NCBI GenBank assembly: GCA_964426185.1
Contig: CAYRPF010000028.1
Coordinates: forward strand, 1-32,000
Direction of reading: 5' to 3'
DNA from: an uncultured archaeon
GTDB taxonomy: Archaea; Asgardarchaeota; Lokiarchaeia; Sigyniarchaeales; Promethearchaeaceae
Length of the DNA stretch: 32,000 nt
Part shown: piece after piece, positions 10,598 to 30,696 of the stretch
How positions within the stretch are numbered: the first letter of the stretch is position 1
Layout of the letters: every line of letters begins with the position of its first letter
The notes under the pieces: model-generated
Told to the model about the DNA's origin: nothing
Databases searched by the model: none
Seen by the model: only the letters and a program-made list of their open reading frames with translations
Made by a program: the position numbers and the translations under genes

Positions 10598-13195
10598 TTG
10601 TGGCTCATGATAGGGGATAATTCCAAGGTTTCATCCAAGATTTCTTTTGATATTTCATCCAAATCAACTGATTTTCTTAAGAAAAAATCTGAAATTGATT
10701 ATTCCATGCAAGAATTTACCACAATGTTTCACAATGTGCTTATAAAGATAAGAGATGAACTCCTCATCTCATTTTCTGAAAATCCGACATTAATTAAACC
10801 TTCAAATGATTTATATGAATTTCTCAAAGATGAAACTCTTTTGGAGCTGAAAGATGAAAATTTTTTGCTTCAAGCTTCAGAAATGGGTGCATTCTATCTG
10901 TTGAATAAAATTTTTTATTATGAATTTATACGACAACAAGTTCGAGAATCACATGCCATAAAACTTCCCCAAATTTATTCCTCCAAATTATCTGAAAGTC
11001 TTCCTTGTCAAGTTTTGAAGAATTTTAAGATTCTTGAAGAACTATTTGAAGTCGCGCCAATATTCAGTAACAATCCTTATTTTAAAATCCTCGAAGTTTT
11101 TCCTTCATTCAATAATGTCATTGCCATACTCTCTACTTTTATTTCAGAGATAAGCCGTATGAACTTTCTGCATCTTCAAGTAGATTTTTTGGGGAATTTT
11201 TTTCAAGAATTATTACCTGGATTAGATCGAAAATTACTCGGCCAAATCTATACTCCTCCAGAAATTGCGAAACTAATGGTTGAGCTGGCTATCCGTTCAC
11301 CTAATGATACGGTGCTGGATCCAGCTTGTGGATGTGGTAGTTTGCTTTTACAAAGTTATAGGCGCTTAAACAAGTTAAAAGATCAAAATATTTCAAAATC
11401 TTCCCCAAATTCGAAGGAATTTCTAAACTCCTTTCATAATCATGTATTAAATCAATTATGGGGGATCGAAATTAATCCTTTTCCAGCGCATATTTCCATG
11501 CTATCTCTTTCACTCTTGAATTTATCATCCATAACTGATAGTGTGGGTATTTTTTTAGAGGATTTCCTTAAATTAGGCCCATTAAAAACGTATATAGTGA
11601 AATCGAAGAATTTACAAAATGGGCATATTATCACGCGCGTATTGCCTTCTTTTTTTGATGTTGTTATCGCCAACCCTCCATATATTAAACAGGAAAAAAT
11701 CCCGAATAAGAAAGAAATGATGTGCCAATTACCCTTATTTGCTTCTCAAAGGGTTAATTTCCAAAAAAAAAGGAATTTTTCTGGTGAAATCCCTTCAAAA
11801 AAAAGAATTAAATTAGGTCTCACGGGAAAAACAGATTACTATGGCTTCTTCTTATGGTATGCTACCTATTTTTTGAAAGAAGGAGGTCGACTTTGCTTTA
11901 TTCTTCCAAATAAGTGGATGGATGTTAAATATGGTGAAAAATTGAAGGAATTTCTATTGGCAAATTATAAAATTAATGCGATAATCGGATTTGACCAGAA
12001 TGTTTTCCCAAAAGCACAAGTTTCAACAGTAATTTTATTAGCAGACAGATGCAATTCAGCCACAATGCGTAAATCTACCGAAGTGCAGTTTCTTCGCCTG
12101 CAATCGCCGAAAGTTTTTCCCCTCATTACGAAGATATTAAAATCCAGAGATCAAGATGCTATTATTCCATCTAACGAGGGTGAATCTTTCAGTGGATCCC
12201 GTGAACTCACTAAACACAACCGAATTCAGAAGGATTTTCATCCAAATCTTCATAATATTACCTATATTTTTGACAATTCAATATCTGGCATTTCCCGAAC
12301 AATAATCCGGCAAAAATTTCTGGATGCTGAAGAAAAATGGTCCATGAAGTATCTTTTTCAAAGCAGGTTCGCCCGTTTTCTGTCTCAATGTGACCTTCTA
12401 TCATTGGATAATGGAATTTTCACTCGAGTGGTAGGAGGAATTAAAACTGGAGCAAACGCATTTTTCTTTCCTTCTTCAGAATTAATCGAGCAATTTTGTT
12501 TTCCTTCACATTATCTGAAACCTGGAATTCGTTCGGGGCGAAATTTACCCGATACTTTTATAATTAATTCATCCATCGACCTATTTGTATCAATCCCTCC
12601 AGAATTAAATTCCCATGAATCTCCGGAAATTTCTGCCTACATAAAATACGGAGAAGAAAAAGAAAAATATCCCAAGCGACCTTCGCTGCATTGGAAACCT
12701 TGGTATGCAATTCCCGAAAGTCAACAAGATTCTCCTGATATATTATTTTTACGACATATTGATAAAAATTTTCGGGCTTTTTGGAATAAAATTGGGGCAA
12801 TTGTTGCTGATGGAATACGGGGTATCAAGGTTTTAGATTCAAAATGGCTCTACTTTCTATTAGGTCTATGTAATTCCACCTTTTTTTATTGGCAAGCGCA
12901 TATGTTAGGAAGGTGGGAAGGACAAGGTGATCTTCAATTATTGGTTTATGAACTAAGAAGATTTGTTATACCGAATTTAAACAAAATTTCAGATAGGCAA
13001 AAATCTCGAGTGGTCCATGCGATGAAATCAATCTTAAGCAATTCTCCAAGGATAGATCAAGTTTCCCTTTCACAACAAGAATCATTAGACAGAGCAGTGC
13101 TGGCTTGTTTTGATTTAGAAGGAAAATATGACTTATTGGTGAAAGAAACTCTTGATTTGGAACGAAAACGTATAAATAAGGGGAAATCAGAGTAG
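10598..13195 (+). CDS. N6-adenine DNA methyltransferase, Eco57I/type IIG-like (gamma class) with TRD
   Basis: LGQIYTP, motif I VLDPACGCGSLL, motif IV FDVVIANPPYI, GGIKTGANAFF. Start codon uncertain. Confidence 0.88.
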   Translation: MWLMIGDNSKVSSKISFDISSKSTDFLKKKSEIDYSMQEFTTMFHNVLIKIRDELLISFSENPTLIKPSNDLYEFLKDETLLELKDENFLLQASEMGAFYLLNKIFYYEFIRQQVRESHAIKLPQIYSSKLSESLPCQVLKNFKILEELFEVAPIFSNNPYFKILEVFPSFNNVIAILSTFISEISRMNFLHLQVDFLGNFFQELLPGLDRKLLGQIYTPPEIAKLMVELAIRSPNDTVLDPACGCGSLLLQSYRRLNKLKDQNISKSSPNSKEFLNSFHNHVLNQLWGIEINPFPAHISMLSLSLLNLSSITDSVGIFLEDFLKLGPLKTYIVKSKNLQNGHIITRVLPSFFDVVIANPPYIKQEKIPNKKEMMCQLPLFASQRVNFQKKRNFSGEIPSKKRIKLGLTGKTDYYGFFLWYATYFLKEGGRLCFILPNKWMDVKYGEKLKEFLLANYKINAIIGFDQNVFPKAQVSTVILLADRCNSATMRKSTEVQFLRLQSPKVFPLITKILKSRDQDAIIPSNEGESFSGSRELTKHNRIQKDFHPNLHNITYIFDNSISGISRTIIRQKFLDAEEKWSMKYLFQSRFARFLSQCDLLSLDNGIFTRVVGGIKTGANAFFFPSSELIEQFCFPSHYLKPGIRSGRNLPDTFIINSSIDLFVSIPPELNSHESPEISAYIKYGEEKEKYPKRPSLHWKPWYAIPESQQDSPDILFLRHIDKNFRAFWNKIGAIVADGIRGIKVLDSKWLYFLLGLCNSTFFYWQAHMLGRWEGQGDLQLLVYELRRFVIPNLNKISDRQKSRVVHAMKSILSNSPRIDQVSLSQQESLDRAVLACFDLEGKYDLLVKETLDLERKRINKGKSE

Positions 13196-14182: not shown

Positions 14183-15058
14183 TTAAAAGTTAGTAATAAG
14201 CACTTCCGGAATGGCTCCGCGTTTTTTACCATTGCTGTTAATTGCTCTTTTTGCAGAAAGAGTGTGAATATTGTATTCAGAAAACAAATCTAAAATGAAA
14301 TCACAGTAGGAATTTGATAGCATTATATTGCATCCAAGTTCGTTCAATTGTTTGATAATTTCCTTTAAACGAATTTGATCTTCCTTACGGAACAACTCTT
14401 TGGTGTATCCGGTAAAATTTGAAGTTTTAGATAGAGGCATGTACGGGGGATCGAAATAAATAAGACTTTCTTGAGTAGCATAATCCAACACAGATTCAAA
14501 GGAAGCTTCAATAATTTTAATGCCTTGCAGGGCTTCATGAACGGTTCGCAGGTTCTTTTCATCGCAAATTACTGGATTTTTGTATTTACCGAAGGGAACA
14601 TTGAAGTATCCTTTGGAATTAACACGATAAAGACCGTTAAAACAGGTGCGGTTAAGGAAAATCGTGCGAGATGCCTTTTCCATTGGGCTTAAATTAGCAA
14701 ACGAAGAAAATCTGTCCAGCTCTCTGATTTGATAAAAGTATTCCTTTTCATTTTTGTGCTGTTTGAGATGTTCGATAAGTTCATCCACAGATTTCTGGAT
14801 AACCTTATATACATTTATCAAAACTGGATTATTGTCAATTAGAACCGCATTTTCTGGAAGTAAATAGAAGAAAAGAGCGCCACCCCCCACAAATGGCTCA
14901 ATGTAGTGCTTAATTTTGGAAGGAATAAATGGATCTAATTGTTTTAAAAGCTGCCGTTTACCTCCTGCCCATTTCAGAAAAGGGTGCGGTTCTGAAACTA
15001 TTTTAAGATTTTTTCTATTTTGTGCCCGCAATTTAGAGCGATCTAAGGTATCCGACAT
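14183..15058 (-). CDS. dam: Dam-family (D12 class) DNA adenine methyltransferase
   Basis: PFLKWAGGK, EPFVGGGA, FNGLYRVN, YFDPPY, EVLITNF. Confidence 0.93.
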   Translation of the reverse strand: MSDTLDRSKLRAQNRKNLKIVSEPHPFLKWAGGKRQLLKQLDPFIPSKIKHYIEPFVGGGALFFYLLPENAVLIDNNPVLINVYKVIQKSVDELIEHLKQHKNEKEYFYQIRELDRFSSFANLSPMEKASRTIFLNRTCFNGLYRVNSKGYFNVPFGKYKNPVICDEKNLRTVHEALQGIKIIEASFESVLDYATQESLIYFDPPYMPLSKTSNFTGYTKELFRKEDQIRLKEIIKQLNELGCNIMLSNSYCDFILDLFSEYNIHTLSAKRAINSNGKKRGAIPEVLITNF

Positions 15059-15244: not shown

Positions 15245-15287
15245 TAATGGTTGAATAAATTATAAAAATAAAATTTAGGTGAGCAAC

Positions 15288-15641
15288 ATGACCGATGGTA
15301 AAAAAAATCAAACGAAAACCGAAGAAAATCCTAAAACTGATGAACACCGACTAAAATATCGAATTACACCAAAGTATGGTGTCTATACAGAAGATGACAA
15401 AGTAATTTTACAAGTCGCAATCCCTGGTGTTAAAAAAGAAAACATTCAAATGAAGGCATTAAAAGATTATTTCACCTTGCGGGCTCAACGTGATGAAGAC
15501 ACGGTTTACATGTTAGATTTGGACTTTGGGGTGAAGATCGAGCCAGAAAAAACTTCTTCGAGTTATGAAGAAGGACTATTACGCTTAGAATTTAAACGAT
15601 TCAATCCCTTGGAGCACGCTTATACCGTTCCAATTCAATAA
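15288..15641 (+). CDS. hsp20: Small heat shock protein, Hsp20/alpha-crystallin family (copy 1)
   Basis: IPGVKKENI, YEEGLLRL, C-terminal V-P-I motif; SD AGGTGA before ATG at 15288. Confidence 0.88.
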   Translation: MTDGKKNQTKTEENPKTDEHRLKYRITPKYGVYTEDDKVILQVAIPGVKKENIQMKALKDYFTLRAQRDEDTVYMLDLDFGVKIEPEKTSSSYEEGLLRLEFKRFNPLEHAYTVPIQ

Positions 15642-15697
15642 TACATTTTTTTCTTTAACTAAAACGATAAATTTGAAAAAACAAAAAGGTGATGAAT

Positions 15698-16057
15698 ATG
15701 GCACTCGTAGAAAATGAAAAATCCAAAGCAATGCAAGAATCAAAAACCAAAGAAGAACAAGATGAAGTCTATTATCGGGTTTTCCCCGACATGCGACGCC
15801 GAATCAACTACGAAGATAAGAAAATTTTCATCGAAGTTTCCCTCCCAGGAGTTAAAAAAGAAAACATTACTCTGAAAGTATTACCCACCTGGTTCCATTT
15901 AATTGGTCGACGCGGCCACATGGAATACAGTGCCAACCAAGCTTTTGGTGCTGAAGTGGTGCCTGAAAAAACTAAGGCAAAATATGACAACGGTTTGCTG
16001 GAAATAACCGCCTACATCCGTGATCCAATGGATGATGCTAAGGAAATTTCATTATAA
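15698..16057 (+). CDS. hsp20: Small heat shock protein, Hsp20 family (copy 2)
   Basis: LPGVKKENI, AKYDNGLLEI, C-terminal I-S-L; SD AGGTGA before ATG at 15698. Confidence 0.9.
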   Translation: MALVENEKSKAMQESKTKEEQDEVYYRVFPDMRRRINYEDKKIFIEVSLPGVKKENITLKVLPTWFHLIGRRGHMEYSANQAFGAEVVPEKTKAKYDNGLLEITAYIRDPMDDAKEISL

Positions 16058-16149
16058 TTCAGAAAATATTCAATTTTTTAATTCTCTGTAAATCTCTTTA
16101 CAATAAATTATTAATATCAACCGTAAAAAAACCAAGAAGGTGATAGATT

Positions 16150-16521
16150 ATGTCAACAGTGGAAAAAGAAAAAGAAATGGTGGAAAAAAAGGAAGAAGTA
16201 GCTGAATCCAAAAAATCTGAGGAAGAAATCAAATATCGCATTCGTCCAACCCGATACTTGAATTATGATTGCATTGAAAACAAATGGGAAATGGAGTTTC
16301 ATTTACCTGGTGTTCCAAAGGAGAATGTGAAATTTAAGATCTTAAACGATGCCTATTCTCTCGAAGCTAAGCGGGATCAAGCACTGTATCACTCTAGTGA
16401 GTATTTACCCTTTGAAATAGACACAGACAGCGTTAAAGCGGAGTACAACAATGGACTTCTATATGTGTCAGGAAAAATCAAAGATCCCATGGCTGATGCG
16501 GTAGAAATTAAATTGAACTAA
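16150..16521 (+). CDS. hsp20: Small heat shock protein, Hsp20 family (copy 3)
   Basis: LPGVPKENV, AEYNNGLLYV, C-terminal I-K-L; SD AGGTGA. Confidence 0.9.
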   Translation: MSTVEKEKEMVEKKEEVAESKKSEEEIKYRIRPTRYLNYDCIENKWEMEFHLPGVPKENVKFKILNDAYSLEAKRDQALYHSSEYLPFEIDTDSVKAEYNNGLLYVSGKIKDPMADAVEIKLN

Positions 16522-16625: not shown

Positions 16626-17696
16626 ATGGGATCAGAAGATTCTAAATTACCTAAAATTCTTTTAATCGGAACCGGTGGGACCATTACTGCCCAAAAAATC
16701 GACCAAGCGTGGTCTCCCGGTAAATTCACCGAAGAAGATTTGCTCCAATTCATCCCGGAAATTCGCAAATTAGCCGAAATCGATACAACTAACCTGTTCA
16801 ACATAGATTCAGTCTGCATGCAGCCAAAGTATTGGGTAAAAATTGCCGAAACCATTCGAAAGGAGTATGATAATTATCAAGGTTTTGTGATCACACACGG
16901 AACCGATACTTTACATTACACTGCTTCATCACTTTCCTTTTTGATGCAAAATTTGACTAAACCTGTTGTTTTAACCGGATCCATGGTGCCACCTCACGTT
17001 CTAGGGACTGATGCTTGGCGGAATTTAACTGATGCAATTAGGGTGGCGGTAGAAACGAAAATTCATGAGGTTTTGATCGTTTTCAATCGAAAAATTCTCC
17101 GTGGCAATCGTACCAAGAAATTTCGGGAGGTGGAATTCGATGCCTATCAATCCATCGGGATGCAACCCATTGGAATAGTCGAACAAGACATTCGCTATTC
17201 GGGAGTCCCCTATTTTTCTCGAGATCAAAATGAAAAGCCAATATTTTACGATAAGATGGAATTGGAAGTCTGTATTCAAAAAATTACTCCTGGATATAAT
17301 CCCGAAATCATTGCTAAGTTGAGAGAAATTGGATATAAAGGTATAGTTACGGAAGGTTTTGGGTCGGGAAATATTCCAATTTATGAAAATTCGTTGATAA
17401 AAGAAATAGAGCAATCTACGCGGGCCAAAATACCTGTAATTGTATGTTCGCAATGTGCTATTGGATTTTCTTGGATGGATTTGTATGAATCGGGGAAAAT
17501 GGCATTGATAGCGGGAGCAATTCCTGGATACGATATGATCGCTGAAACAGCTATGACTAAATTAATGTGGATTTTGGGTAACTTTCCTAATTTGACCATG
17601 GAAGAAATTCGTGCCAAGGTTTTGGAAGATGTTTCAGGTGAGATTTCATCAATAAAAACTCCTAAAGAAAAACGCGCTTGGGAATATGCATTTTAA
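16626..17696 (+). CDS. ansA: L-asparaginase type I (cytoplasmic)
   Basis: GTGGTI, HGTDT, LTGSM, EGFGSGN. No GatD N-terminal domain and no signal peptide. Confidence 0.92.
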   Translation: MGSEDSKLPKILLIGTGGTITAQKIDQAWSPGKFTEEDLLQFIPEIRKLAEIDTTNLFNIDSVCMQPKYWVKIAETIRKEYDNYQGFVITHGTDTLHYTASSLSFLMQNLTKPVVLTGSMVPPHVLGTDAWRNLTDAIRVAVETKIHEVLIVFNRKILRGNRTKKFREVEFDAYQSIGMQPIGIVEQDIRYSGVPYFSRDQNEKPIFYDKMELEVCIQKITPGYNPEIIAKLREIGYKGIVTEGFGSGNIPIYENSLIKEIEQSTRAKIPVIVCSQCAIGFSWMDLYESGKMALIAGAIPGYDMIAETAMTKLMWILGNFPNLTMEEIRAKVLEDVSGEISSIKTPKEKRAWEYAF

Positions 17697-17771
17697 CTAA
17701 AAAAGAAAAAGGTAAAAATTGTTACTTAAAAGAAAGATAGATAAAAAATATAGGATATTTTTATGTAAATA

Positions 17772-19223
17772 TCAACGATAAGCATCAAAACGGGGATTTG
17801 GCTCTAATTTTTTCATCATTTCTTTCAATCCCGGCTCTACCCCTTGTAATAACATATACCCCTTGTTAGGTTCTCTATTGGTGATTTCTCCCCTCAAGTT
17901 GGTGGTCATAATCTTTCTTACTTCTTCATAATTGCGTGTTTGCCCAAGTGTCCAAATCATTTTGGCATAAGCTGCGGAAGGCAACATGTTTGCACCCTCA
18001 ATCACCCCACGCGCCAACATATCACGCCCTGTTTCATAAACTCGTAGATTTGTAAAACCAAAAAGGGGTTCAACCACAATTGCCACTGGTATTTCTTCTT
18101 CTTGGGCTCGCTCTAATGCCTTAAAAAGATATGAACTAACATGTCCAAGTCCTGTTCCAATTATAACCATTCCATGATACTGCTTATCAATCACTGAGTG
18201 AATCAAATCTTCATCCATTCCAGGATAGAAATAAAGCATTGCCACTCGTTCATCGATTTTATCGTTCAACCATGTATCTTCAATATTTCCCCGCCGCTTT
18301 ACATCATCCTTCAGCCAAGTGATATTCTGATTGGCATCAATATAACCTAAAGGCATATCACTTAAAGTTCTAAATGCATCACGACGACTAGAGTGCATTT
18401 TTCTAACCCGAGTGCCTCGATGAATGAGGTTGTAGGAGTCGCTGGTGTTTCCGTGCATGGATACAACTACTTCTGCCAAGTCTGCATGGCCAGCAATGGT
18501 ACTTGCATCAATAATATTTAATGGGCCATCGCTGGAAGGACGATCGCTGCTTCGCTGTGAACCTACGCAAACGATGGGACGGGCAAGATCTTGAAACATG
18601 AAAGAAAGAGCAGAGGCAGTATATGCCATTGTATCAGTTCCATGACCGATAATCACACCATCTGCCCCATTTTCAAACTCTTTCATTATTTCCCTTGCAG
18701 TTTTAACCCAATATTCGGGTTTGAAATTTTCACTTAAAATTCCATAGATTTTTTTTGGTGTGAGGTTACAAATATTCATTAATTCGGGAACAGCAGAAAA
18801 TAGTTCCTCGGGGGTAAATGCAGGTAATACGGCACCGGTACGGTAGTCTAAACGACTTGCCACCGTTCCACCCGTTCCTAAAAGCGTGACATTAGGTAGT
18901 CCCGGTTTAAACTGGACGTTGACTTTGGGTAATTTATATGTCCCTTTCCGATAACCCAATTCTTCAATGTGACAATCATCGGTGATTCTCACACCCACAT
19001 TATATCCCGTATCTACTTTAATTACCAAGTAATCTTCAGAAGTATGTTCACTTCGCGGTAAAATGACACCTTCATATTCAGCTTTACCTCGAGTAACTTT
19101 TACCACACTCCAAACACCTACTCCTTCTTTAAGTAAGCGTTCTCGGAGTTTTCCCCTATAGCCGGTTGGTTCTTTCTGTAATGATTTTGATGAATCAGAT
19201 GTTTTAGTATTCGGTTCGGTCAT
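17772..19223 (-). CDS. gatD: Glu-tRNA(Gln) amidotransferase subunit D (paralog 1)
   Basis: GatD N-terminal domain (GVILPR...TGYNVGV), GTGGTVASRLDYRTGAV, HGTDTM, GSQRSSDRPSSD, RVRKMHSSRRDAF. Confidence 0.95.
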   Translation of the reverse strand: MTEPNTKTSDSSKSLQKEPTGYRGKLRERLLKEGVGVWSVVKVTRGKAEYEGVILPRSEHTSEDYLVIKVDTGYNVGVRITDDCHIEELGYRKGTYKLPKVNVQFKPGLPNVTLLGTGGTVASRLDYRTGAVLPAFTPEELFSAVPELMNICNLTPKKIYGILSENFKPEYWVKTAREIMKEFENGADGVIIGHGTDTMAYTASALSFMFQDLARPIVCVGSQRSSDRPSSDGPLNIIDASTIAGHADLAEVVVSMHGNTSDSYNLIHRGTRVRKMHSSRRDAFRTLSDMPLGYIDANQNITWLKDDVKRRGNIEDTWLNDKIDERVAMLYFYPGMDEDLIHSVIDKQYHGMVIIGTGLGHVSSYLFKALERAQEEEIPVAIVVEPLFGFTNLRVYETGRDMLARGVIEGANMLPSAAYAKMIWTLGQTRNYEEVRKIMTTNLRGEITNREPNKGYMLLQGVEPGLKEMMKKLEPNPRFDAYR

Positions 19224-19226
19224 TTT

Positions 19227-21206
19227 TTATAACCCCCCTTGTAGCTTATTATTAACAAACTCTGCTACTTGATTTCCAGGAAGTGCATGATTAATCTTTC
19301 TCATAATTATACCGATTAATTGATTCGATTTATAATTCAATATATCTTCTTTTGATAAATGCTTTAGAACTTCTTTTTTCTTCGATTTAGCTTCAAAATT
19401 TTTGTAAACTTCTAAAGCATATAGGTATTCTTGTTCCAACTGTTCCTCAGACAAATCTTTTGTGCCGAATGCTTCTAATAATTGATCTAAAGTTAGTTCT
19501 GGATGATTCAAGGTAGAAATGACTAAATTGGGCAATATTGACCAATCAAAGTTCTTATCTTGTGCGCCCTTTAATAACTCGATAATTTTCTCATCAGAAA
19601 GCTTATCGATTTTTATACCATCCCGTTTTAAGCCCAATAAACTATCTTCTAAGAAGTAATATGCTCGTTTAATGGGAATTTTATGTTCATTAACTAAGTT
19701 TTCAAAAAGAATAATATGATCATGTCGAATTAGCTGTGTCAATTGATCGAAAGTTATTCTTGATTTTCCACAATACATTTTTTCATATTCCCACGGCCGT
19801 TTTCCTACTTTAACCACCAATTTTGAAATCGCTTCCATATCCATATCTAGGACAGGTGTATCAGTATCTGGATACAATCGCTCTTTTCCATGAATTACTC
19901 GGAGAAATTCGGAATTTCCATTAGGCAAAGCACGGCGAGTTTCTTGAGGTACTCCATCAAAGGCTATTTTAATGCGTTCAATTACCTTTTTCATGGCGTG
20001 AATTGCCCATTTTTGAGAACCTAAAGCCAAAACATAAGCATCTTCACCGGAACAACTCAAGGTTTTAGCGATTTCTTGACGACGATTTTGATCTATTAAT
20101 GGTTTAAAGAAATTTCCTTGTGAATTAATGGGGGAATTAAACATATCTGAATGATAAAGATTCCAAATGGGAATACCACTGATAAGCGAAGCTTTCTCCA
20201 AAATATCTTGGCCAAAATCTTTTCCTGGCTGTTCTTCCTTTCCTAGTATTCCAGCTAATTTAGGTAGTCGAATTCCCATCACAATGGAATTTTCGGGAAT
20301 ATCTTGGAAATGATGGGTAATATCTATGTAAGTGTGCTCAAAATTATCCTTTTTTAAACCTCTTTGCTGAAGTTCTTGTGCAATTTCAATTAGGGTCTCT
20401 TGACGGCACACCTCATATCGGCAGAGCTTCTCAAAATTATCTAAATCTTGCACTCCTTTTAATTCAACTCGATCTCCTCCAGTAATACTGATATTTACAT
20501 CTTGGCGAACAGTTCCGATTCCTCTGCGCCCGATTCCGCTTAATCGTAAAACAAGACCAATAGTTTTAGCGGTTTTAATTAATTCTGCAGGATTGGAAAC
20601 ATCTCGATGATCAGTAATTACTTCAACTAAAGGAATGCCTAGACGATCTAAGTTGTAATAAACTGTTCTGCCATTATTTTCCGTTTTAATTTTACGTGCA
20701 CTGTCTTCTTCCACTGTAAGATTGGTGATCTTTACTTTTTTGCCATCCACCTCTACCCAACCATCACGAGCAACAATAGTAGTCCGTTGAAAACCGGTAG
20801 TGATGCTTCCATCAAGATACTGCTTTCGGGCAAAAATAATTTCATCCACCATAGCTTGACAGTTCAACCAATGAGCGAGTTCATATCCTCTCATCAAAGC
20901 CTCTACATCCGGATGCATGGGCGGCTGTTCATCTTGTTCATAAATACAATCGCATTTTTCAAAAGCATGATAGATCACCCGATACCCTTTCTCATATTCA
21001 ATGAGCATCCCAGGATCGAAGTCACCCATTTCACCCAACACTGGTCGAAAGTATCGTTCAAAGCGATAATCTGGTTTTGTTGAATTTGGGATCATAATTG
21101 GGGGGCAATGGCAGAAAAGTTTGCGTTTTGAGTTAATTTGATGATGGATTTCTAAACCAGCATGAAACCCAATTTTTTGAAAATCAATATTATTTGGATC
21201 TAGCAT
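19227..21206 (-). CDS. gatE: Glu-tRNA(Gln) amidotransferase subunit E (paralog 1)
   Basis: GLEIHHQ, KLFCHCP, DGSITTGFQRT, EEDSAR, LDRLGIPLVEV, GTVRQDVNISI, RVELKGVQ, RLYPDTD. Confidence 0.95.
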   Translation of the reverse strand: MLDPNNIDFQKIGFHAGLEIHHQINSKRKLFCHCPPIMIPNSTKPDYRFERYFRPVLGEMGDFDPGMLIEYEKGYRVIYHAFEKCDCIYEQDEQPPMHPDVEALMRGYELAHWLNCQAMVDEIIFARKQYLDGSITTGFQRTTIVARDGWVEVDGKKVKITNLTVEEDSARKIKTENNGRTVYYNLDRLGIPLVEVITDHRDVSNPAELIKTAKTIGLVLRLSGIGRRGIGTVRQDVNISITGGDRVELKGVQDLDNFEKLCRYEVCRQETLIEIAQELQQRGLKKDNFEHTYIDITHHFQDIPENSIVMGIRLPKLAGILGKEEQPGKDFGQDILEKASLISGIPIWNLYHSDMFNSPINSQGNFFKPLIDQNRRQEIAKTLSCSGEDAYVLALGSQKWAIHAMKKVIERIKIAFDGVPQETRRALPNGNSEFLRVIHGKERLYPDTDTPVLDMDMEAISKLVVKVGKRPWEYEKMYCGKSRITFDQLTQLIRHDHIILFENLVNEHKIPIKRAYYFLEDSLLGLKRDGIKIDKLSDEKIIELLKGAQDKNFDWSILPNLVISTLNHPELTLDQLLEAFGTKDLSEEQLEQEYLYALEVYKNFEAKSKKKEVLKHLSKEDILNYKSNQLIGIIMRKINHALPGNQVAEFVNNKLQGGL

Positions 21207-21215
21207 TATTATTCA

Positions 21216-21278
21216 CAAAAACCACTAAACTGAATTATTTGAGTTAAGAACGGAACCTTTTTGAAGTCGTGGTTTTTG
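21216..21278 (-). promoter_or_regulatory. 10-bp perfect inverted repeat in the gatE1 leader
   Basis: CAAAAACCAC at 21216-21225 and GTGGTTTTTG at 21269-21278, 43-nt loop; the proximal arm ends 10 nt before the ATG. Confidence 0.4.
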
Positions 21279-21305
21279 CAAGGAGCACGGGAAGAAAATG
21301 GGATG

Positions 21306-21716
21306 TTAACATAATTGAAATTCAGAAAATTTCGTGTTGATTAATACATCTATCTTCTTTTTAAGCAAGTCTACATCGAAATTTGAAACATTAAGGATAC
21401 CTTTATTCTCTATATAAATCGTAGTGGCGATCTCCCTCAATCTTTTTAAATCACAATTATCCTTTAAATAGAAGACGAAATAGATGGCTTTTTTCTGAAA
21501 ATATAAATTTTTGGCAATCACAACCATATAGGTTAGATCTACACCAGAACCGAATGAAATGGTGGCTATATCTTGATGAAAGAGTTTTTGTCCCAAACTT
21601 CCTATAGCCGAAACCATTCCGCTAAGAAGCACACCATTAATTTCGGGAAATCCTGCGAATGTGCGTGTAAAAAAAGGAAATCCTCGTGAATCACAAATTT
21701 GTAGGCATAAAATCAT
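21306..21716 (-). CDS. Stand-alone longin-like domain protein (Asgard eukaryotic signature type)
   Basis: Pattern ILCLQICDSRGFPFFTRTF...LLSGMVSAIGSLGQKLF, then three beta strands and two helices, fits longin topology. Confidence 0.7.
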   Translation of the reverse strand: MILCLQICDSRGFPFFTRTFAGFPEINGVLLSGMVSAIGSLGQKLFHQDIATISFGSGVDLTYMVVIAKNLYFQKKAIYFVFYLKDNCDLKRLREIATTIYIENKGILNVSNFDVDLLKKKIDVLINTKFSEFQLC

Positions 21717-21836
21717 AAAATCTCTAAGAGATTAAAGGAAACGCACCCAAATTAATTTAATCGATTTGGAAGCATTAAAAATGAAGCATTTATTCGGAAT
21801 ATCAAATTATAAAAATTTTTGACACCTTTAGTTCAT

Positions 21837-23828
21837 ATGGGAAAATCGATAGACTATGCCGCAGTCGGGCTTAAATGTGGGATTGAAATCCACCAACAAT
21901 TGAATTCTGCCACTAAACTCTTTTGTGCTTGCCCAAATCAACTACAAGGCACCCGAGATCCAGATTTCAGAATTTTAAGAAAACAAAGACCAGTTTTAGG
22001 GGAAGAAGGGAAATTTGACGAAGGTATGCTGTCTGAATTTTTGAAAGGTGGTTCAGTCATTTACGAAGGATATTATGATTGCACCTGCACTTACGAACTT
22101 GATGAAACTCCTCCGTTTGCATGCGATGAAGAATGCATTGATATTGCACTGGAGATTTGTGCGCTTTTTAAAATGGATATCGTCAGAGAAATGCATGTAT
22201 GTCGAAAAAATTATGTAGATGGAAGTGTGCCGGCTGGGTTCCAGAGAACCATGGAAATCGGCCAAAATGGCAGATTAACCTTAAAAAACGGGGAAGAAAT
22301 CGGAATTGAAAATATATTTTTAGAAGAAGATGCCGCCCGTCGAATAAAAACTGAAGGAAAAATCTCATATTTTCGAGTTGATCGATTAGGAATTCCTTTG
22401 GTCGAAATAACTACTACTCCAGACATCCATGATCCAGAAGATGCACGAGAAACGGCCTATCGCATTGGTTTATTATTGCGTTCCACAAACAAAGTCAAAA
22501 ATATAATTGGTTCCACTCGTCAAGATATAAATGTCTCGATTGCAGGAGGAAAACGTATAGAAATTAAGGGTGTCCAGAAATTAGATTGGATACCGTTATT
22601 AATCCAGAATGAAGTTCTCCGACAGCAGAAACTGATTGAAATTAAGGACAAATTGAAGCAAAAATCATTCTCAGCCACAGATATCAAGAACAAACCCGTG
22701 GATTTAACCAATGTTTTTCAAAAAACCAATTGCAAATTTGTTAAAGCAGGGATAAAACGAAAAGAAAAATTAATAGGTTTGAAAATTCCTGGTTTTAAAG
22801 GCATATTTGGAACGGAAGTCCTACCAAATCGTCGATTCGGAACAGAAGTTGCCGATAAAGTAAAAGTAATTACTGGTTTAAAGGGTCTTATTCATTCAGA
22901 CGAACCATTAATTGAGAAATATCAGTTTTCTGAAGAAGAAATAGAACAAGCTAATCAAAAATTGGAAATTAATGAGGGAGATCTATTTATCTTATTACTC
23001 GCAAAAGGAAAAGCTTTAGAAACCGCCCTTAATGTGATTATTGAACGTTGTAAACAAGCATACATCGGTGTTCCTGAAGAGACTAGGCAAGCCCAAGAAG
23101 ATGGTATTCATGTTTTTCTGAGGGAATTGGGAGGCGAAAAAAGGTTATATCCAGATACAGATACTCCTCCAATAATCCTTTCTGAAAATCGTATCAATGC
23201 CTTTGAAGATAAGTTACCTCTTTATCCATGGGATGTCATTAAGATTTACTCTAAAAAATATCAGCTCGAAGAATTTCTCATTGAAGATTTAATAATGACG
23301 GGTAAACTTCCGCTATTTGATGAGTTAATTACAAAGTATCCTGATAATCCCATGTTAATTGTCCGAGCCATAACCGATATGGTTAAAGTTTTACATCGCG
23401 AAGAAAAAGATACTAATAATTTGCACCCCAATCATTATCATCAAATATTTAAGGGTTTAAAGGAGGAAATCATTGCAAAAGAAGCTATTCAGAAAATACT
23501 ACGGGTCTGGTGTGATGAGCCTAATTTACCTTTAACTCGAGCGAAAGCTAAAGCGGGAGTTCAATCGGTAAATGAGTCAAAATTAGACGAAATTATTACA
23601 GATCTCGTTAGGAAAAATCAAGATCTTATCAAATCACGAGGACGGGGAGCAGTGGGGCCATTAATGGGTGATTTAATGAAGATTGTGGGTAGAGGGTCGA
23701 TAGATGGGAAAATTTTATCATCCAAATTAAGCCAAGCAATCAGTAAAATCCTCCCAAATTCTCAAACAACTCCAAAGAAGAAAAAGGAAAAAAAAAATAC
23801 TACAAAATCAAAGAAGGTGAAAAACTAA
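21837..23828 (+). CDS. gatE: Glu-tRNA(Gln) amidotransferase subunit E (paralog 2)
   Basis: GLKCGIEIHQQL, KLFCACP, DGSVPAGFQRT, LEEDAAR, DRLGIPLVEI, RQDINVSI, RIEIKGVQ, RLYPDTD, YqeY-like GPLMGDLM. ATG at 21837 preferred over TTG at 21819. Confidence 0.95.
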   Translation: MGKSIDYAAVGLKCGIEIHQQLNSATKLFCACPNQLQGTRDPDFRILRKQRPVLGEEGKFDEGMLSEFLKGGSVIYEGYYDCTCTYELDETPPFACDEECIDIALEICALFKMDIVREMHVCRKNYVDGSVPAGFQRTMEIGQNGRLTLKNGEEIGIENIFLEEDAARRIKTEGKISYFRVDRLGIPLVEITTTPDIHDPEDARETAYRIGLLLRSTNKVKNIIGSTRQDINVSIAGGKRIEIKGVQKLDWIPLLIQNEVLRQQKLIEIKDKLKQKSFSATDIKNKPVDLTNVFQKTNCKFVKAGIKRKEKLIGLKIPGFKGIFGTEVLPNRRFGTEVADKVKVITGLKGLIHSDEPLIEKYQFSEEEIEQANQKLEINEGDLFILLLAKGKALETALNVIIERCKQAYIGVPEETRQAQEDGIHVFLRELGGEKRLYPDTDTPPIILSENRINAFEDKLPLYPWDVIKIYSKKYQLEEFLIEDLIMTGKLPLFDELITKYPDNPMLIVRAITDMVKVLHREEKDTNNLHPNHYHQIFKGLKEEIIAKEAIQKILRVWCDEPNLPLTRAKAKAGVQSVNESKLDEIITDLVRKNQDLIKSRGRGAVGPLMGDLMKIVGRGSIDGKILSSKLSQAISKILPNSQTTPKKKKEKKNTTKSKKVKN

Positions 23829-23829
23829 G

Positions 23830-25218
23830 ATGACTAGCCAAACTCAAGAATTTTACAGTGGTTATAAGCCTCAAACCATTAAAATTATGCAAAAATTTGA
23901 TGTAAAGATTTGGGATCGAATTGAAATTACCACCTCCAAAGGAAAAGCCCAAGGTGTGGTTCTTCCCCGCAATAAATTTGCCCCCGATGGTTTTATTGAA
24001 ATAAAACTCAAAAATGGATACAATATTGGTATTCCTGTGGATGAATCTTCTAATATCAAAGTATTGGGAACTGTGCCTCCGATGAAAGTATCATTTGAAC
24101 AAAAAACTCTTCCACACAACAAAAAACTTCCCACAGTAAAATTAATTGGGACGGGAGGGACAATCGCTTCCCGCTTGGATTATACTACAGGTGCGGTAAT
24201 TCCCGCATTTGAACCAGGAGAATTATTTACTGCAGTGCCAGAATTAGCTGAGATCAGTAATATAGAGACTGAGGTGGTATTTCAACTTCTTTCGGAGAAT
24301 TTATCCCCCCAGAACTGGCTTGAATTGGCAAAAAAAATTGTTTCTATAGCGAAATCGGAAATTGATGGAATCATAATTGCTCATGGAACCGATACTTTAA
24401 GTTTCACGGCCGCAGCTTTATCCTTTTTGTTAAAAAATGTTTCTATTCCAATTGTACTGGTTGGATCCCAGCGCTCAAGCGATCGACCTTCTTCAGATGC
24501 TGCCTTAAACTTGATTAATGCCGTAAAAGTTGCTAGTGAAGCCAATTTAGGAGAAGTCGTTGTCTGTATGTTGGGTTCATCAGCGCATGATTACGGTTTT
24601 ATTCACCGGGGTACCAGAGTTCGTAAGATGCATTCATCCGCGCGCCACACTTTTCGATCGATTGGAGCATCTCCTCTGGGGATGGTACGAAATCAGATAA
24701 TTACCTATTTTAGTCCTGATTATAATCCCAGAAATAAGAATAATCTCAGTAAAATGGATTTTTGGCCGAAAATTGAAGATAAAGTGGCTTTAATTTATTC
24801 ACATCCTGGTATGCAAAGCGATGTTTTAGATTTTTATATCAATAACGGATATAAGGGCATTGTTTTTGCTGGTTCAGGATTAGGACATTTACCAAAAACG
24901 ATGTTTCCTGCTTTGAAGCGGGCGCAGCAAGCTGAAATTCCCGTTCTAATGACTGTCCAAACTATTTGGGGTTATACTGGAATGGATGTGTATGAAAGTG
25001 GTCGAGAATTACTGGAATTGGGGGTAATTCCCGGAAAAAATATGTTACCTGAGGTGGCTTTTGCTAAAATGTGCTGGGCTTTGGGAAATTTCGAAGGATA
25101 CAATAAGGTTAAAGAAATCTTAACCACCAACATTGCGGGAGAAATCACTCTGGGAGAACCGATGAATGGATTTATGGTGCTACAAGGGGTAGAAGATAAG
25201 ATACTACCCTTAAAATAA
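23830..25218 (+). CDS. gatD: Glu-tRNA(Gln) amidotransferase subunit D (paralog 2)
   Basis: GVVLPR...KNGYNIGI, GTGGTIASRLDYTTGAV, HGTDTL, GSQRSSDRPSSD, RVRKMHSS. Starts 1 nt after the gatE2 stop. Confidence 0.95.
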   Translation: MTSQTQEFYSGYKPQTIKIMQKFDVKIWDRIEITTSKGKAQGVVLPRNKFAPDGFIEIKLKNGYNIGIPVDESSNIKVLGTVPPMKVSFEQKTLPHNKKLPTVKLIGTGGTIASRLDYTTGAVIPAFEPGELFTAVPELAEISNIETEVVFQLLSENLSPQNWLELAKKIVSIAKSEIDGIIIAHGTDTLSFTAAALSFLLKNVSIPIVLVGSQRSSDRPSSDAALNLINAVKVASEANLGEVVVCMLGSSAHDYGFIHRGTRVRKMHSSARHTFRSIGASPLGMVRNQIITYFSPDYNPRNKNNLSKMDFWPKIEDKVALIYSHPGMQSDVLDFYINNGYKGIVFAGSGLGHLPKTMFPALKRAQQAEIPVLMTVQTIWGYTGMDVYESGRELLELGVIPGKNMLPEVAFAKMCWALGNFEGYNKVKEILTTNIAGEITLGEPMNGFMVLQGVEDKILPLK

Positions 25219-25316
25219 CTTTTTTTTATTTATTTCACCCTATTACTTCATCCTCATTAGCAATTAGAATAAATCAGAAAAAAGAGTGAGAAGCAGGAAA
25301 AGTGGGAAAAAATGGA

Positions 25317-26615
25317 TTAAGGGGTATTTCGATTCATTACCCTGGGATATGCAATAGTATCTCGAATATGATCTAATTTTCCCACCCAGCGAAGTAGTCT
25401 TTCGATTCCTAAACCAAAACCTGAATGAGGTACGCTTCCGTACCGGCGTAAATCTAAATACCATTGATAATCTTCGATATCTGAGCCGTCTCGCTTAAGA
25501 TTAAAGATAATATTGTCAATGTCATCCTCGCGCTGACTGGATCCAATAATTTCACCATAACCTTCAGGTGCTAATAAATCGTTGCATTCCGCGTATTTCC
25601 CATCCAAAGTTTTCATATAAAATGCTTTAATATCTCGAGGAAAATGAGTTATATGAATTGGGGCTGTAAGATCCTCGGTTAAGGCACGTTCGTGATGGGT
25701 TCCAAAATCTTCACCCCACTCGATAGGCACACCCTTATTTTGAATGCGTTCCACAGCTTCATCGTAGCGGATTCGGTCAAATGGTGGTTCGATTTTTAAT
25801 AATTCTTCAGGATCGCGGCCCAATTCCTTCAAATCTCGGGATACTTCCTTAGCTGCGTGATGAATCATGGAAGTAACCAATCCATCTTCCAAATTAATTA
25901 TTCCCTCCAAATCCACAAACGCAGCTTCAGCTTCCAAATGCCAGTATTCTGCCAGATGACGAGTAGTACGAGATTTTTCTGCTCGAAAACTGGGTGTCAA
26001 AGAGTAAACTTTTTGATGAGCAAAAATTAAGGATTCTAAATACAATTGAGCGGATTGAGAAAGATAAGCTGGTTTACCGAAATACTTAATTTCGAAAAGG
26101 GTGCTTCCTCCTTCACAAGAACTTCCTGTAATTATGGGAGGAAACATTTCCCAATAGCCTTGCTCTTTGAAATAAGCCCGAGCACCTTCCAATAATGCAG
26201 CTTTAACCCGAAAACTACTGGTAAGTTTTTGACTCCGGACCCAAAGATGGCGATTGTCCAAGAGAAAGGCTTCACTTTGATCCTTTGAAATCGGAAATGG
26301 TTCTGCCTGATGAATGAGTTTGTATTCTGAAATTTTTAACTCATATCCGTTTGGTGCTCGTTCATCTGGTTGAATTTTGCCACCTACCCAAAGTGAAGAT
26401 TCATACCGAATTCCACAGATATCTTCAAATTTTTCAAGTTTAAAATCTGAAGCTTTGGCAGTGCATTGTAAAATACCCGTTCCGTCTCGAATAATTATGA
26501 ATGCAATTTTCTTACTGTTCCGTTGGCGATATACCCAACCACGGACCCGGACTTCTTTTCCCGCAAATTCTGGTGATATCACTTCTTCAATACGATAGAA
26601 TTTTTTTTCTTCCAT
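25317..26615 (-). CDS. asnS: Asparaginyl-tRNA synthetase (archaeal type)
   Basis: OB-fold (VRGWV, IRDGTG), motif 2 FRAEKSRTTRHLAEYWHLEAE (AsnRS-type rather than AspRS-type), GEIIGSSQRE, motif 3 PHSGFGLGIER. Confidence 0.95.
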   Translation of the reverse strand: MEEKKFYRIEEVISPEFAGKEVRVRGWVYRQRNSKKIAFIIIRDGTGILQCTAKASDFKLEKFEDICGIRYESSLWVGGKIQPDERAPNGYELKISEYKLIHQAEPFPISKDQSEAFLLDNRHLWVRSQKLTSSFRVKAALLEGARAYFKEQGYWEMFPPIITGSSCEGGSTLFEIKYFGKPAYLSQSAQLYLESLIFAHQKVYSLTPSFRAEKSRTTRHLAEYWHLEAEAAFVDLEGIINLEDGLVTSMIHHAAKEVSRDLKELGRDPEELLKIEPPFDRIRYDEAVERIQNKGVPIEWGEDFGTHHERALTEDLTAPIHITHFPRDIKAFYMKTLDGKYAECNDLLAPEGYGEIIGSSQREDDIDNIIFNLKRDGSDIEDYQWYLDLRRYGSVPHSGFGLGIERLLRWVGKLDHIRDTIAYPRVMNRNTP

Positions 26616-27288: not shown

Positions 27289-28557
27289 TTATTTATTACT
27301 AATTGTATCTTTTGATTCTTCTTCATGTTCTTTTTCATGTTTTTTCTCATTTTTCTCCTTCTTTTTGTCATCTGTATATTTTTTGAAGAGTTTTTCTTTT
27401 ATACCTAAAATTGCAGCTAATTGTTCTTTAGATTTCTTCTCTTCCCGACTTTTTTCTCTTTCTTTTGCTTCAATGCGGGCTAATTTCTTCCGTTCTTTTT
27501 CAATTTTCTTTTCTAACGCAAGTTTTGCAGCTTCCAATGCTTTCAAAGATTGAATCTGTTTTAATTCAGCTTTGTATTCGTTTTTATCTGCTTTCCATTC
27601 TAAGCGTTCAAGCCGTTCTCTTGCTTTTTCCCGTTTTTGTTGAGCTTTTTCCAGTAATTTCTGGGCTCGGCGATCTTTGTATTCCGTCTTTTTCAATTGA
27701 TAATAGGCAATTGGTGTTTTCCGACCTTTTAGTTCTTCATGTTCTGCAATTATTTCTTCCACTTCTTTGATTGGTTTTATTTTGGCGCGTTCTTCTGCAG
27801 TAAGGTCATCCTTTTCTCTAAATTCGCTGGGTCGATATTTCATAGCTGGGGTTCCCATATACACCCAATTGGGTTCCAACTCTTGATGGAAAGAAGTGCT
27901 GGAAAGGGCACCTAGAATGGTGTTATCTCCTATAATTGTTCCTGGACTGACCACAGAGTGGGCTCCAATCAAGCAATTTTTTCCAATCTTTACTTTCTTT
28001 ATGATGAGAAGTTCAGTGGTAATTAAGGAAGTCATGATTACAGAACCTTGCCCGATAATTGTTCCAGGTCCGACTTCTAAGAATTCTGAATCCACCCATG
28101 CATCATATGTGGGTGTAGAGAATGATACTCGGTTTCCAAAGACCTTAAGAGCAAGTGAATCTGCCCAAGGAACGGGAAAATTATGGCAAATCCACAGAGT
28201 AAATTTTTTAATTACTGCGCGAAGACTCCAAAATCGATAATCGCGGTTTTTAGAAGATCTTTCAAAATATCCCTCACGTGGACGATGGAATAGGTTAATT
28301 ATTTTAAGAAAAAGCCAAGACCACCATATTGCTCCAAAAATCAATAGAAAATAGCCCAGAAAGAAAAGAAGGGGGAATATTCCCAAAAACCAAGCAAGTG
28401 AAATTTCGAAAGATGAAAGGATCTTAAAAATAATATATGTTTCGGGAAACAAAGTTAACCAAATCAATAAAACATATAGTAAAATATCCCATTTTACCAA
28501 TAAAGTATTTGTGGTAGTCGGTCCTGCTTTTAAACTGGTCGGTAGTTGATTTGACAT
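27289..28557 (-). CDS. Membrane-anchored left-handed beta-helix (hexapeptide) acyltransferase-like protein with a long charged C-terminal coiled coil
   Basis: Two TM segments, PREGYF...YRFW, hexapeptides VGPGTIIGQGSVI and VKIGKNCLIGAHSVVSPGTIIGDNTILGALS, YMGTPA, then a K/E-rich tail. Confidence 0.8.
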   Translation of the reverse strand: MSNQLPTSLKAGPTTTNTLLVKWDILLYVLLIWLTLFPETYIIFKILSSFEISLAWFLGIFPLLFFLGYFLLIFGAIWWSWLFLKIINLFHRPREGYFERSSKNRDYRFWSLRAVIKKFTLWICHNFPVPWADSLALKVFGNRVSFSTPTYDAWVDSEFLEVGPGTIIGQGSVIMTSLITTELLIIKKVKIGKNCLIGAHSVVSPGTIIGDNTILGALSSTSFHQELEPNWVYMGTPAMKYRPSEFREKDDLTAEERAKIKPIKEVEEIIAEHEELKGRKTPIAYYQLKKTEYKDRRAQKLLEKAQQKREKARERLERLEWKADKNEYKAELKQIQSLKALEAAKLALEKKIEKERKKLARIEAKEREKSREEKKSKEQLAAILGIKEKLFKKYTDDKKKEKNEKKHEKEHEEESKDTISNK

Positions 28558-28608
28558 TTTGAATTACTCCCTCTTTATTGTTGTATATTTTTTATTCTTG
28601 CATATTTT

Positions 28609-29487
28609 TTACTTTTGCGTATTTTTCGCTTCTTTATATCGCTTTTTTCGCTGTTTATTTTGAAGCACCAGCGGTTCAAGCTCATCTGGAATTTCAAGCA
28701 TCCTTATATAACGTTTAAGCGAAATCTTTCCGACGGGTAAACCGAAATATTTGCCAAATCCCTTAACTCTCCGAAATTTCACCACTCCCGACATTGGTAA
28801 AAATTCTGTATAGGGGTCCAATTCAGTTCCAGGAGGAATTGCATTAAAAGCACCCACAACGGCATGATCTCCAATTTTCACTTTTTTTAAAGTTATGGCA
28901 CCGTATTTTCCTTCCACAAGATGGCTGCTTACTATTGCACCCTGCCCAATATATGCGTTTTCTCCCATCTCCAAAAATTCTTGGGTATAAAACTGATCTT
29001 CTAACACAGAATTTTTTCCAATTTTGTTCGCACCTACAAATGCAAAAGCCCAAGGAACCAACCAGGGATATATTGATTTAGAAACTTCCCATTTTAAGAT
29101 ACGTAAAATTAATCCACGCAAGTGATAATAATTTAGCGCCCGAACTTCAGCTCTATTTACACCAGCAGCTGCCACCAATTCCGTTTGAGGCGACCGCCAA
29201 TTACAAAATCGTATCACCCAACGGCTGAACAGGATTAAAATCATTAATCTAATAAAAAAGAAGAGTATAATAATTATGGGGGTAAAAATCCATATCGCAA
29301 TTAATCTAAGGTCTATAATAACTAACGAAAATTGAAGCAAACTTGGCAAATTTGGATATACTGAAAATTTTACATAATAATACAAACCAATTGATGGAAA
29401 AAACCAAGAATATCCCCAAATAAATAAGATAATTGGAACATACCGTTCATATTGAATTCTAACCTTAGGGACAGCGGAAGAGATCAT
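28609..29487 (-). CDS. Membrane-anchored left-handed beta-helix acyltransferase-like protein (paralog)
   Basis: Two TM segments, MGENAYIGQGAIVSSH, VKIGDHAVVGAFNAIPPGT, YFGLP. Confidence 0.8.
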   Translation of the reverse strand: MISSAVPKVRIQYERYVPIILFIWGYSWFFPSIGLYYYVKFSVYPNLPSLLQFSLVIIDLRLIAIWIFTPIIIILFFFIRLMILILFSRWVIRFCNWRSPQTELVAAAGVNRAEVRALNYYHLRGLILRILKWEVSKSIYPWLVPWAFAFVGANKIGKNSVLEDQFYTQEFLEMGENAYIGQGAIVSSHLVEGKYGAITLKKVKIGDHAVVGAFNAIPPGTELDPYTEFLPMSGVVKFRRVKGFGKYFGLPVGKISLKRYIRMLEIPDELEPLVLQNKQRKKRYKEAKNTQK

Positions 29488-30075: not shown

Positions 30076-30696
30076 TTAGAATTCGAGAAATCCAGGATCG
30101 CCTAAAATTTCTTCTATATTTGCTCGTTTTTTTGGCTTTTCTGAAGGAATATCTTGCTCTTCCCCAAATGGATTCATTTCTTGTTCATCGTAAATATTTT
30201 CTTCTAATTCCGCATCAACGATCAAACCAGCTTTCAATTGTTCCAATAGGCGTTTCTCATTTTCTTTATATTGCTTGGCGGTTTCTTTCCACCGTTCTGC
30301 ATTTTCTAAATCTTTCGGATCATTATATTTCTCAAATTCTTCCAAAGCCTTATCTGCATTAATTTGAGCATTATCTGATAGGAAAGAATATACTAAAGCC
30401 AATTCGGAATATTGTTGCTTTTCCTTCAAGATTTCTTCGCGTCTGGTTAATCTTTCATATTCTTGATCTTTATAGTAGATATCAATAAAAGAACCAAATG
30501 CATCAACGGGTTCACTGATTTCATTCTTAGGAACTACCTGCTGCTCACCGCAATGCCCGCATTCAATCAAAGCTTTGTCATCGCTATACTTCATATTCGC
30601 TTTCATGGTTTTATGTCCACATTTCGGGCAAGTAAAAATTTTAGGAACGGCTCTTACTCTTCTATAAACTACTTTTTTTCGCTTTCTTCTTCCCAT
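30076..30696 (-). CDS. elf1: Transcription elongation factor Elf1 with a ~130-aa C-terminal extension
   Basis: MGRRKRKK, FTCPKCGH, CGHCG, EPVDAFGSFID match the Elf1 signature. Confidence 0.9.
   Translation of the reverse strand: MGRRKRKKVVYRRVRAVPKIFTCPKCGHKTMKANMKYSDDKALIECGHCGEQQVVPKNEISEPVDAFGSFIDIYYKDQEYERLTRREEILKEKQQYSELALVYSFLSDNAQINADKALEEFEKYNDPKDLENAERWKETAKQYKENEKRLLEQLKAGLIVDAELEENIYDEQEMNPFGEEQDIPSEKPKKRANIEEILGDPGFLEF

Follow-up and report, generated by a model that had tools for sequence, protein, structure and literature searches.

A second GatDE subfamily beside the canonical amidotransferase of a Lokiarchaeia genome, with a possible role in asparagine supply

The 32,000-nucleotide window analyzed here (contig CAYRPF010000028.1 of assembly GCA_964426185.1, from an uncultured Lokiarchaeia archaeon of the family Promethearchaeaceae) encodes two intact, divergently oriented GatDE pairs. 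In reviews GatDE figures as one archaeal signature enzyme with strict specificity for Glu-tRNA(Gln), and the reason for the split between it and GatCAB, the archaeal Asp-tRNA(Asn) amidotransferase, is called an open question (PMC2330236). Pair 1 consists of gatE1 (19227..21206, − strand; 659 residues), encoding a kinase/amidase subunit with an intact cradle, a remodelled insertion domain and lost tail motifs, and gatD1 (17772..19223, −; 483 residues), encoding the glutaminase/asparaginase subunit; both belong to a second subfamily. Pair 2 consists of gatE2 (21819..23828, +), with a canonical insertion domain and tail motif, and gatD2 (23830..25218, +; 462 residues), both of the vertical Lokiarchaeia type; the probable start codon of gatE2 is the ATG at 21837 rather than the TTG at 21819, since the ortholog in Ca. 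Harpocratesius repetitus begins at the corresponding position. A longin/roadblock-like gene of 136 codons (21306..21716, −) lies between the pairs, and the cluster is flanked by ansA (16626..17696, +), whose product is a stand-alone type I asparaginase, and asnS (25317..26615, −), whose product scores above the cut-off for asparaginyl-tRNA synthetase (AsnRS). GatD1 and GatD2 score 517 and 493 bits against TIGR02153 (cut-off 324), and GatE1 and GatE2 481 and 654 bits against NF003107 (cut-off 456). An earlier note on this DNA had described these seven genes, and we find them at the positions and on the strands it gave, with open frames and with the GatD and GatE motifs that it quoted. The two copies, to which databases give identical annotation, share only 35% (GatE) and 45% (GatD) identity.

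The cluster is genuine, and all four gat genes evolve under purifying selection. Gene order matches that of a third genome of the genus and of the closed chromosome of a close relative, H. repetitus FW102 (Lokiarchaeia), and its conservation in a closed genome rules out an error of assembly; in four public runs, moreover, contigs span the region without joints, so that the chimeric assembly for which the earlier note wanted synteny and coverage checked is excluded. Relative to H. repetitus, the nonsynonymous divergence (dN) is 0.057 for gatD1, the slowest-evolving gene in the cluster, 0.173 for gatE1, 0.160 for gatE2 and 0.164 for gatD2, against saturated synonymous divergence (dS). The pairs are physically linked in all eight genomes of the family that carry both on one contig.

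Phylogenetic analysis assigns the two pairs different histories. GatE2 and GatD2 cluster with the sole GatDE of other Lokiarchaeia, and in several relatives gatE2 and gatD2 still follow an elp3-like gene; by tree and position, then, pair 2 is the vertically inherited Lokiarchaeia enzyme. GatE1 forms its own clade, on a long stem, with a Shimodaira–Hasegawa-like approximate likelihood ratio (SH-aLRT) support of 100 that is stable after the addition of 139 family representatives. Its nearest relatives outside the family (54–59% identity) are proteins named from Heimdallarchaeota, followed at 46–51% by proteins of Bathyarchaeia and Heimdallarchaeaceae, all much nearer than GatE2. The GatD1 tree mirrors this clade, which is unaffected by the omission from that tree of the GatD2 rows of two genomes. 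A clade uniting GatE1 and GatE2 within the Lokiarchaeia alone is rejected (approximately unbiased test, p-AU 0.0001), while a sister relationship of the whole GatE1 clade to Lokiarchaeia GatE2 is not (p 0.076). Thus, of the old, retained duplication proposed in the earlier note, the long retention of two intact pairs stands and a duplication within the Lokiarchaeia does not; the shared motifs of the RPVLGE type offered as its proof are found in the majority of GatE proteins of the Loki, Odin and Hod types.

In a set of 400 Asgard genomes, 9 of the 14 from the window's family have the GatE1 type; four further families include carriers, and the large sister family, with 135 genomes, has none. 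Around one Bathyarchaeia carrier the type occurs in 6 of 61 genomes. This patchy distribution implies horizontal movement, and hence that GatE1/GatD1 is a horizontally moved sister enzyme, a separate subfamily common to Lokiarchaeia, Heimdallarchaeia (a label taken, for the related families, from protein names) and Bathyarchaeia. A search of plasmids gave no GatE1 match. GatDE1 is present in both Lokiarchaeia that have been brought into culture, P. syntrophicum MK-D1 and Ca. L. ossiferum. We found no description of two GatDE pairs or of the GatE1 subfamily in the part of the literature that we covered, and the subfamily is apparently an undescribed branch of the GatDE family.

Comparison with archaeal GatDE of known structure (M. 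thermautotrophicus, PDB 2D6F; P. abyssi, PDB 1ZQ1) shows that the chemistry residues are kept in both pairs and points to altered tRNA-elbow and GluRS contacts in pair 1. GatE2/GatD2 fits these enzymes in all respects tested: catalytic residues, insertion domain and tail motif are canonical. Pair 1 resembles them in its two subunits, its gatE-gatD order and its overall fold, and it shares the GatD catalytic Thr/Thr/Asp/Lys and the GatE Mg ligands. GatD1 has an N-terminal domain and a type I asparaginase domain, with the Thr nucleophile, the Thr-Asp-Lys triad and thus the full catalytic set kept, and the invariant His21, Glu166 and Glu195 of GatE1 match the Mg ligands His15, Glu157 and Glu184 of M. 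thermautotrophicus GatE, which proved essential there (PMC2330236). The predicted model of GatE1 (mean predicted local distance difference test score 90.8) finds GatDE as its best structural match, with folded helical and tail domains. What sets the window's genome apart from the known systems is the presence of two pairs, and what sets GatE1 apart, besides its own clade, is a shortened insertion domain, a lost tail motif and a tail that is poorly conserved or absent.

The altered regions are those with known tRNA-related partners. The AspRS-like insertion domain of GatE is the docking site for the nondiscriminating GluRS (PMC2943598); in GatE1 it is folded in the model, lacks a segment of 7–10 residues throughout the clade, has no match to PF02938 and in most members contains a basic insert. 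The YqeY-like tail of GatE reads the tRNA D-loop through a GXXAXGX motif (PMC2811023); the GatE1 tail lacks this motif, although the strict motif varies among canonical Asgard GatE as well, and has lost seven of the eight conserved tail columns (one column, against eight, at 85% conservation). Across six matched genomes, identity in the cradle is similar for GatE1 and GatE2 (0.77 and 0.81), and it falls to 0.44 against 0.60 in the helical domain and to 0.46 against 0.67 in the tail. In one genus the tail is absent altogether and GatE1 is 573–579 residues long (for example L044:7316-9034 in G004 and L046:16756-18483 in G009, 573 and 576 residues); this genus has an AspRS with a discriminating-type Lys and a tandem gatE2-gatD2-gatE1-gatD1 arrangement. 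The loss of canonical features has not been accompanied by visible convergence on GatB, in cradle or in tail: GatE1 has neither a GatB-type cradle nor a GatB-type tail, the tail residues common to canonical GatE and GatB are missing from it, and its partner is GatD. A 28-member GatE clade that we provisionally take as the bacterial GatDE branch has representatives that, like GatE1, lack the canonical tail motif; it groups with a canonical Heimdallarchaeia GatE, not with GatE1. In a related family, open frames of nearly 1100 codons looked like a fusion of GatE with GatD; they proved to be separate genes with an in-frame stop.

The gene inventory of the window's genome frames the question of function. 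In this 92%-complete genome we found no gatA, gatB, GlnRS or true AsnB gene, the check for which the earlier note had called; it does encode AsnRS, an archaeal AsnA above cut-off, one AspRS, one archaeal GluRS and two glutamine synthetases. Since GlnRS is absent, the making of Gln-tRNA must fall to one or both of the GatDE pairs, and since AsnA and AsnRS are present, a direct route to Asn-tRNA already exists. Canonical GatE is kept alongside GatE1 in 16 carriers from three lineages, and GlnRS is absent from all nine tested carriers that have both types. Among genomes with GatE1 only, a bacterial-type GlnRS is present in 11 of 12 tested in one family and in 3 of 5 in another, with a GlnRS-like gene in one further genome; three GatE1-only genomes without GlnRS are 89–92% complete.

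GatB is found in none of the 50 GatE1 carriers tested (43 assessed by the GatB family model, six Bathyarchaeia by cross-hit and one more). Within the window's family the two are complementary: nine genomes have GatE1 without GatB, four have GatB without GatE1 (80–85% complete) and one has neither, the split running inside one genus. AsnRS is present in nearly all GatE1 carriers, and two closed GatE1-only genomes have AsnRS and lack AsnA, AsnB and GatB. Hence GatDE1, which shares its cradle chemistry with GatCAB and is found only where GatB is missing, may fill the role of GatCAB, even though it uses an asparaginase-type GatD in place of GatA and GatC and retains the GatE insertion domain.

That one pair is neofunctionalized, as the earlier note suggested, is probable; which function it took on is a reading of sequence. 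Our preferred reading is a division of labour in which GatDE2 makes Gln-tRNA and GatDE1 amidates aspartate, either free or on tRNA(Asn), replacing GatCAB. We give this reading a probability of roughly 0.5, which, like all our weightings of function, is a judgement rather than a computed value. By homology, GatE2/GatD2 would be the housekeeping Glu-tRNA(Gln) amidotransferase. In pair 1, GatD1, given its invariant catalytic residues, would free ammonia from glutamine or asparagine, and GatE1 would phosphorylate a carboxyl group with ATP and then amidate it. Canonical GatDE is inactive unless Glu-tRNA(Gln) is present. The motif loss, the faster evolution of the tail and its absence from one genus indicate that GatE1 has given up the GatE way of reading the tRNA elbow, and its carboxyl substrate would be aspartate, so that GatDE1 would supply asparagine instead of GatCAB. 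M. thermautotrophicus GatDE refuses Asp-tRNA(Asn) through features of the tRNA (PMC2330236), which suggests, by analogy, that the GatDE site itself could accept Asp.

This reading takes two forms. In the first, which we advance tentatively, free aspartate would be the substrate and GatDE1 an asparagine synthetase dependent on glutamine, with AsnRS charging the asparagine that it makes. In the second, a shade more doubtful, the substrate would be Asp-tRNA(Asn), or both mischarged tRNAs. The genus with a tail-less GatE1 and a discriminating-type AspRS argues that GatDE1 can do its job without the D-loop contact and without Asp-tRNA(Asn), and tilts the choice slightly to the free amino acid. There is a precedent for such a change: Roy et al. 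reportedly described in 2003 how AsnA arose from a tRNA enzyme that became an amino-acid synthetase through loss of its tRNA-binding domain. AsnA (AsnRS-like, NF005054), a separate gene in the window's genome, is unrelated in fold and uses free ammonia and an adenylate, and AsnB, which would be the functional analog of GatDE1 if free Asp is the substrate, is likewise unrelated; GatE1/GatD1 shows neither the AsnRS-like fold of AsnA nor the Ntn-hydrolase and ATP-pyrophosphatase folds of AsnB.

Several observations weigh against the assignment of aspartate. Many genomes that lack GatE1 have no GatB either (17 of 31 in one survey and, in another, most Bathyarchaeia), and the carriers are kin, so the mutual exclusion is partly background; outside the window's family GatB is often absent in any case, and the count of carriers overstates the pattern. 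AsnA scores above cut-off in ten carriers, the window's genome included, and AsnA with AsnRS would make GatCAB dispensable without any help from GatDE1; an AsnB-family gene is above cut-off in one carrier, with AsnB-like genes below it in three. E. coli has AsnA and AsnB together, so an ammonia-dependent AsnA is no bar to a second source of asparagine. GatE1 retains the basic loop that in GatE lies at the tRNA's first base pair, and tRNA-Asn has G1:C72. It also keeps an insertion domain, a structure predicted to block docking of the nondiscriminating AspRS (PMC2943598). The free-aspartate form must in addition accommodate a GatE1 tail that, in the window's lineage, folds in the model and is under purifying selection.

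The tRNA-bound form, which the earlier note had proposed, is plausible, and it too meets difficulties: besides G1:C72 and the want of GatB-like features, at least six carriers, the tail-less genus among them, have a discriminating-type Lys or Gln in the AspRS anticodon loop. We take the Pro/Lys and His/Trp sites of AspRS to report on tRNA discrimination. The window's AspRS has Phe at the latter and, at the former, Pro, as does S. tokodaii AspRS (1WYD), the T. kodakarensis enzyme (1B8A) having Lys. Most carriers share this nondiscriminating-type Pro; the signature is weak, because of the carriers with Lys or Gln and because Pro also occurs in some genomes that have neither GatB nor GatE1.

The most serious rival, a strong one though less likely than our reading, would make of GatDE1 a xenologous further Glu-tRNA(Gln) amidotransferase that uses A1:U72 instead of the D-loop. 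Such an enzyme might be kept for another amide donor, an isoacceptor or a growth condition, or to clear Glu-tRNA(Gln) beside GlnRS. It is consistent with the passing of both the GatE and the GatD cut-offs, with a fold nearest GatDE, with the retained first-base-pair loop and with the A1:U72 of tRNA-Gln here and in GatE1-only genomes. It is also compatible with both AspRS types, and one Heimdallarchaeia family, whose genomes have the canonical or the GatE1 type and rarely both, fits interchangeable enzymes. However, the canonical pair has been displaced in none of the 16 carriers of the three lineages that hold both, the GluRS-docking insertion domain and the D-loop tail are just the parts that have been remodelled, and the complementarity with GatB in the window's family is left unexplained. 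Retuned tRNAs give no clue, as every carrier read has tRNA-Asn with G1:C72 and tRNA-Gln with A1:U72, as do tRNA-Asn and tRNA-Gln(CUG) of the window's genome.

An improbable third reading is that GatDE1 amidates some other carboxyl group (on a small molecule, a cofactor or a protein, or on a different acid linked to RNA) or that it converts asparagine to yield free glutamine. The decay and loss of the tail, the many cradle residues that are invariant in and specific to the GatE1 subfamily, and a glutamine synthetase gene near the pair in six related loci would fit it; yet no neighbour is conserved across the subfamily, all five carriers tested have glutamine synthetases, and the GatB pattern again goes unexplained. 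That one pair is a local duplicate made within the Lokiarchaeia, a copy in decay or the product of chimeric assembly, as the constant linkage of the pairs might suggest, is scarcely credible given the p-AU of 0.0001, the low dN of gatD1 and gatE1 against saturated dS, the identical order in a closed genome and the four runs without joints.

A GatDE subfamily that coexists with the canonical enzyme, is not found with GatCAB and persists where GlnRS has arrived offers a natural experiment on the making and charging of the amide amino acids. If GatDE1 acts on free aspartate, it would be a third kind of asparagine synthetase, tRNA-independent, built from GatE and GatD and working via a phosphoryl-aspartate intermediate, and it would have allowed GatCAB to be lost in several lineages of Asgard archaea and Bathyarchaeia. 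Whatever its substrate, gatE is unsafe as a single-copy marker for Asgard archaea. Expression of all four subunits in E. coli is feasible, and established assays are available, as is an E. coli asnA asnB strain auxotrophic for Asn (JF448).

The neighbourhood adds little. Across the 50 GatE1 loci, gatD1 follows gatE1 in almost all those whose length would reveal it, and no other neighbour is conserved. The asparagine-centred setting, from which the earlier note had drawn an amide-homeostasis system, is confined to the window's genus: ansA adjoins the pair solely here and in H. repetitus, asnS here and otherwise only in the genus's two other genomes, and only within the genus does the longin-like gene sit between the pairs. 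The likeness of the latter comes from the ESM Atlas, Pfam giving no match, and the gene has two paralogs elsewhere in the genome. In MK-D1, published values in reads per kilobase per million (RPKM) are 250/307 for gatE1/gatD1 and 234/287 for gatE2/gatD2, the copies being assigned by gene order (PMC7015854); with the whole table page flat at 143–529 RPKM, they say nothing either way. A sigma-70 promoter scan of the region, a model unsuited to archaea, stayed at chance level.

Several other observations concern amide synthesis and tRNA in these genomes. Reviews state that archaea lack GlnRS (PMC9499178); we find it in three Asgard families. In Heimdallarchaeia-type genomes (L150:401-2353:- and L151:136-2058:+; G055 and G122) the bacterial-type GlnRS exceeds the NCBIfam cut-off and carries an archaeal GluRS-like N-terminal domain, and adjoining tRNA-Gln genes have A73 in four genomes and G73 in two. 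Genomes of the sister family have an AsnRS gene 2–4 kb from gatB (G030:C42, G031:C119, G040:C197, G023:C36 and others), so that AsnRS and GatCAB do coexist in archaea, contrary to the statement that archaeal GatCAB is encoded solely when AsnRS is not (PMC2330236). A 444-residue class IIb synthetase paralog (L139 and L140; G125:C24, G126:C437 and also G123:C30) scores 290–300 bits against the AsnA model (cut-off 309), retains an N-terminal region of anticodon-domain length and is a possible AspRS/AsnA intermediate. AsnB-like proteins of about 500 residues, below cut-off, have Thr where the catalytic Cys of the N terminus would be (L276:181-1701, L277:244-1737, L280:161-1687). Neither tRNA-Gln(UUG) nor tRNA-Asp turned up in the window's genome, where what ARAGORN called on contig 39 resembles a tRNA-Lys with an intron; searching by pattern for tRNA-Gln gave no match. 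In G056:C1 an intron-containing tRNA-Asn and, 38 kb away in the opposite orientation, a partial copy (near 2352164 and 2390470; L157 and L158) resemble an element integrated at a tRNA.

Elsewhere in the window lie three DNA adenine methyltransferase or restriction-modification genes (1521-4175, 10598-13195 and 14183-15058) accompanied by mutL (4745-6631), three tandem Hsp20-like genes (15279-16521, +) also present in H. repetitus, a JAB-domain protein gene (295-993, −) and a gene for an Elf1-like protein of 206 residues with a long extension (30076-30696, −). Two hexapeptide acyltransferase-like membrane genes (27289-29487, −), one resembling heptaprenylglyceryl-phosphate O-acetyltransferase, adjoin gatD2 throughout the family.

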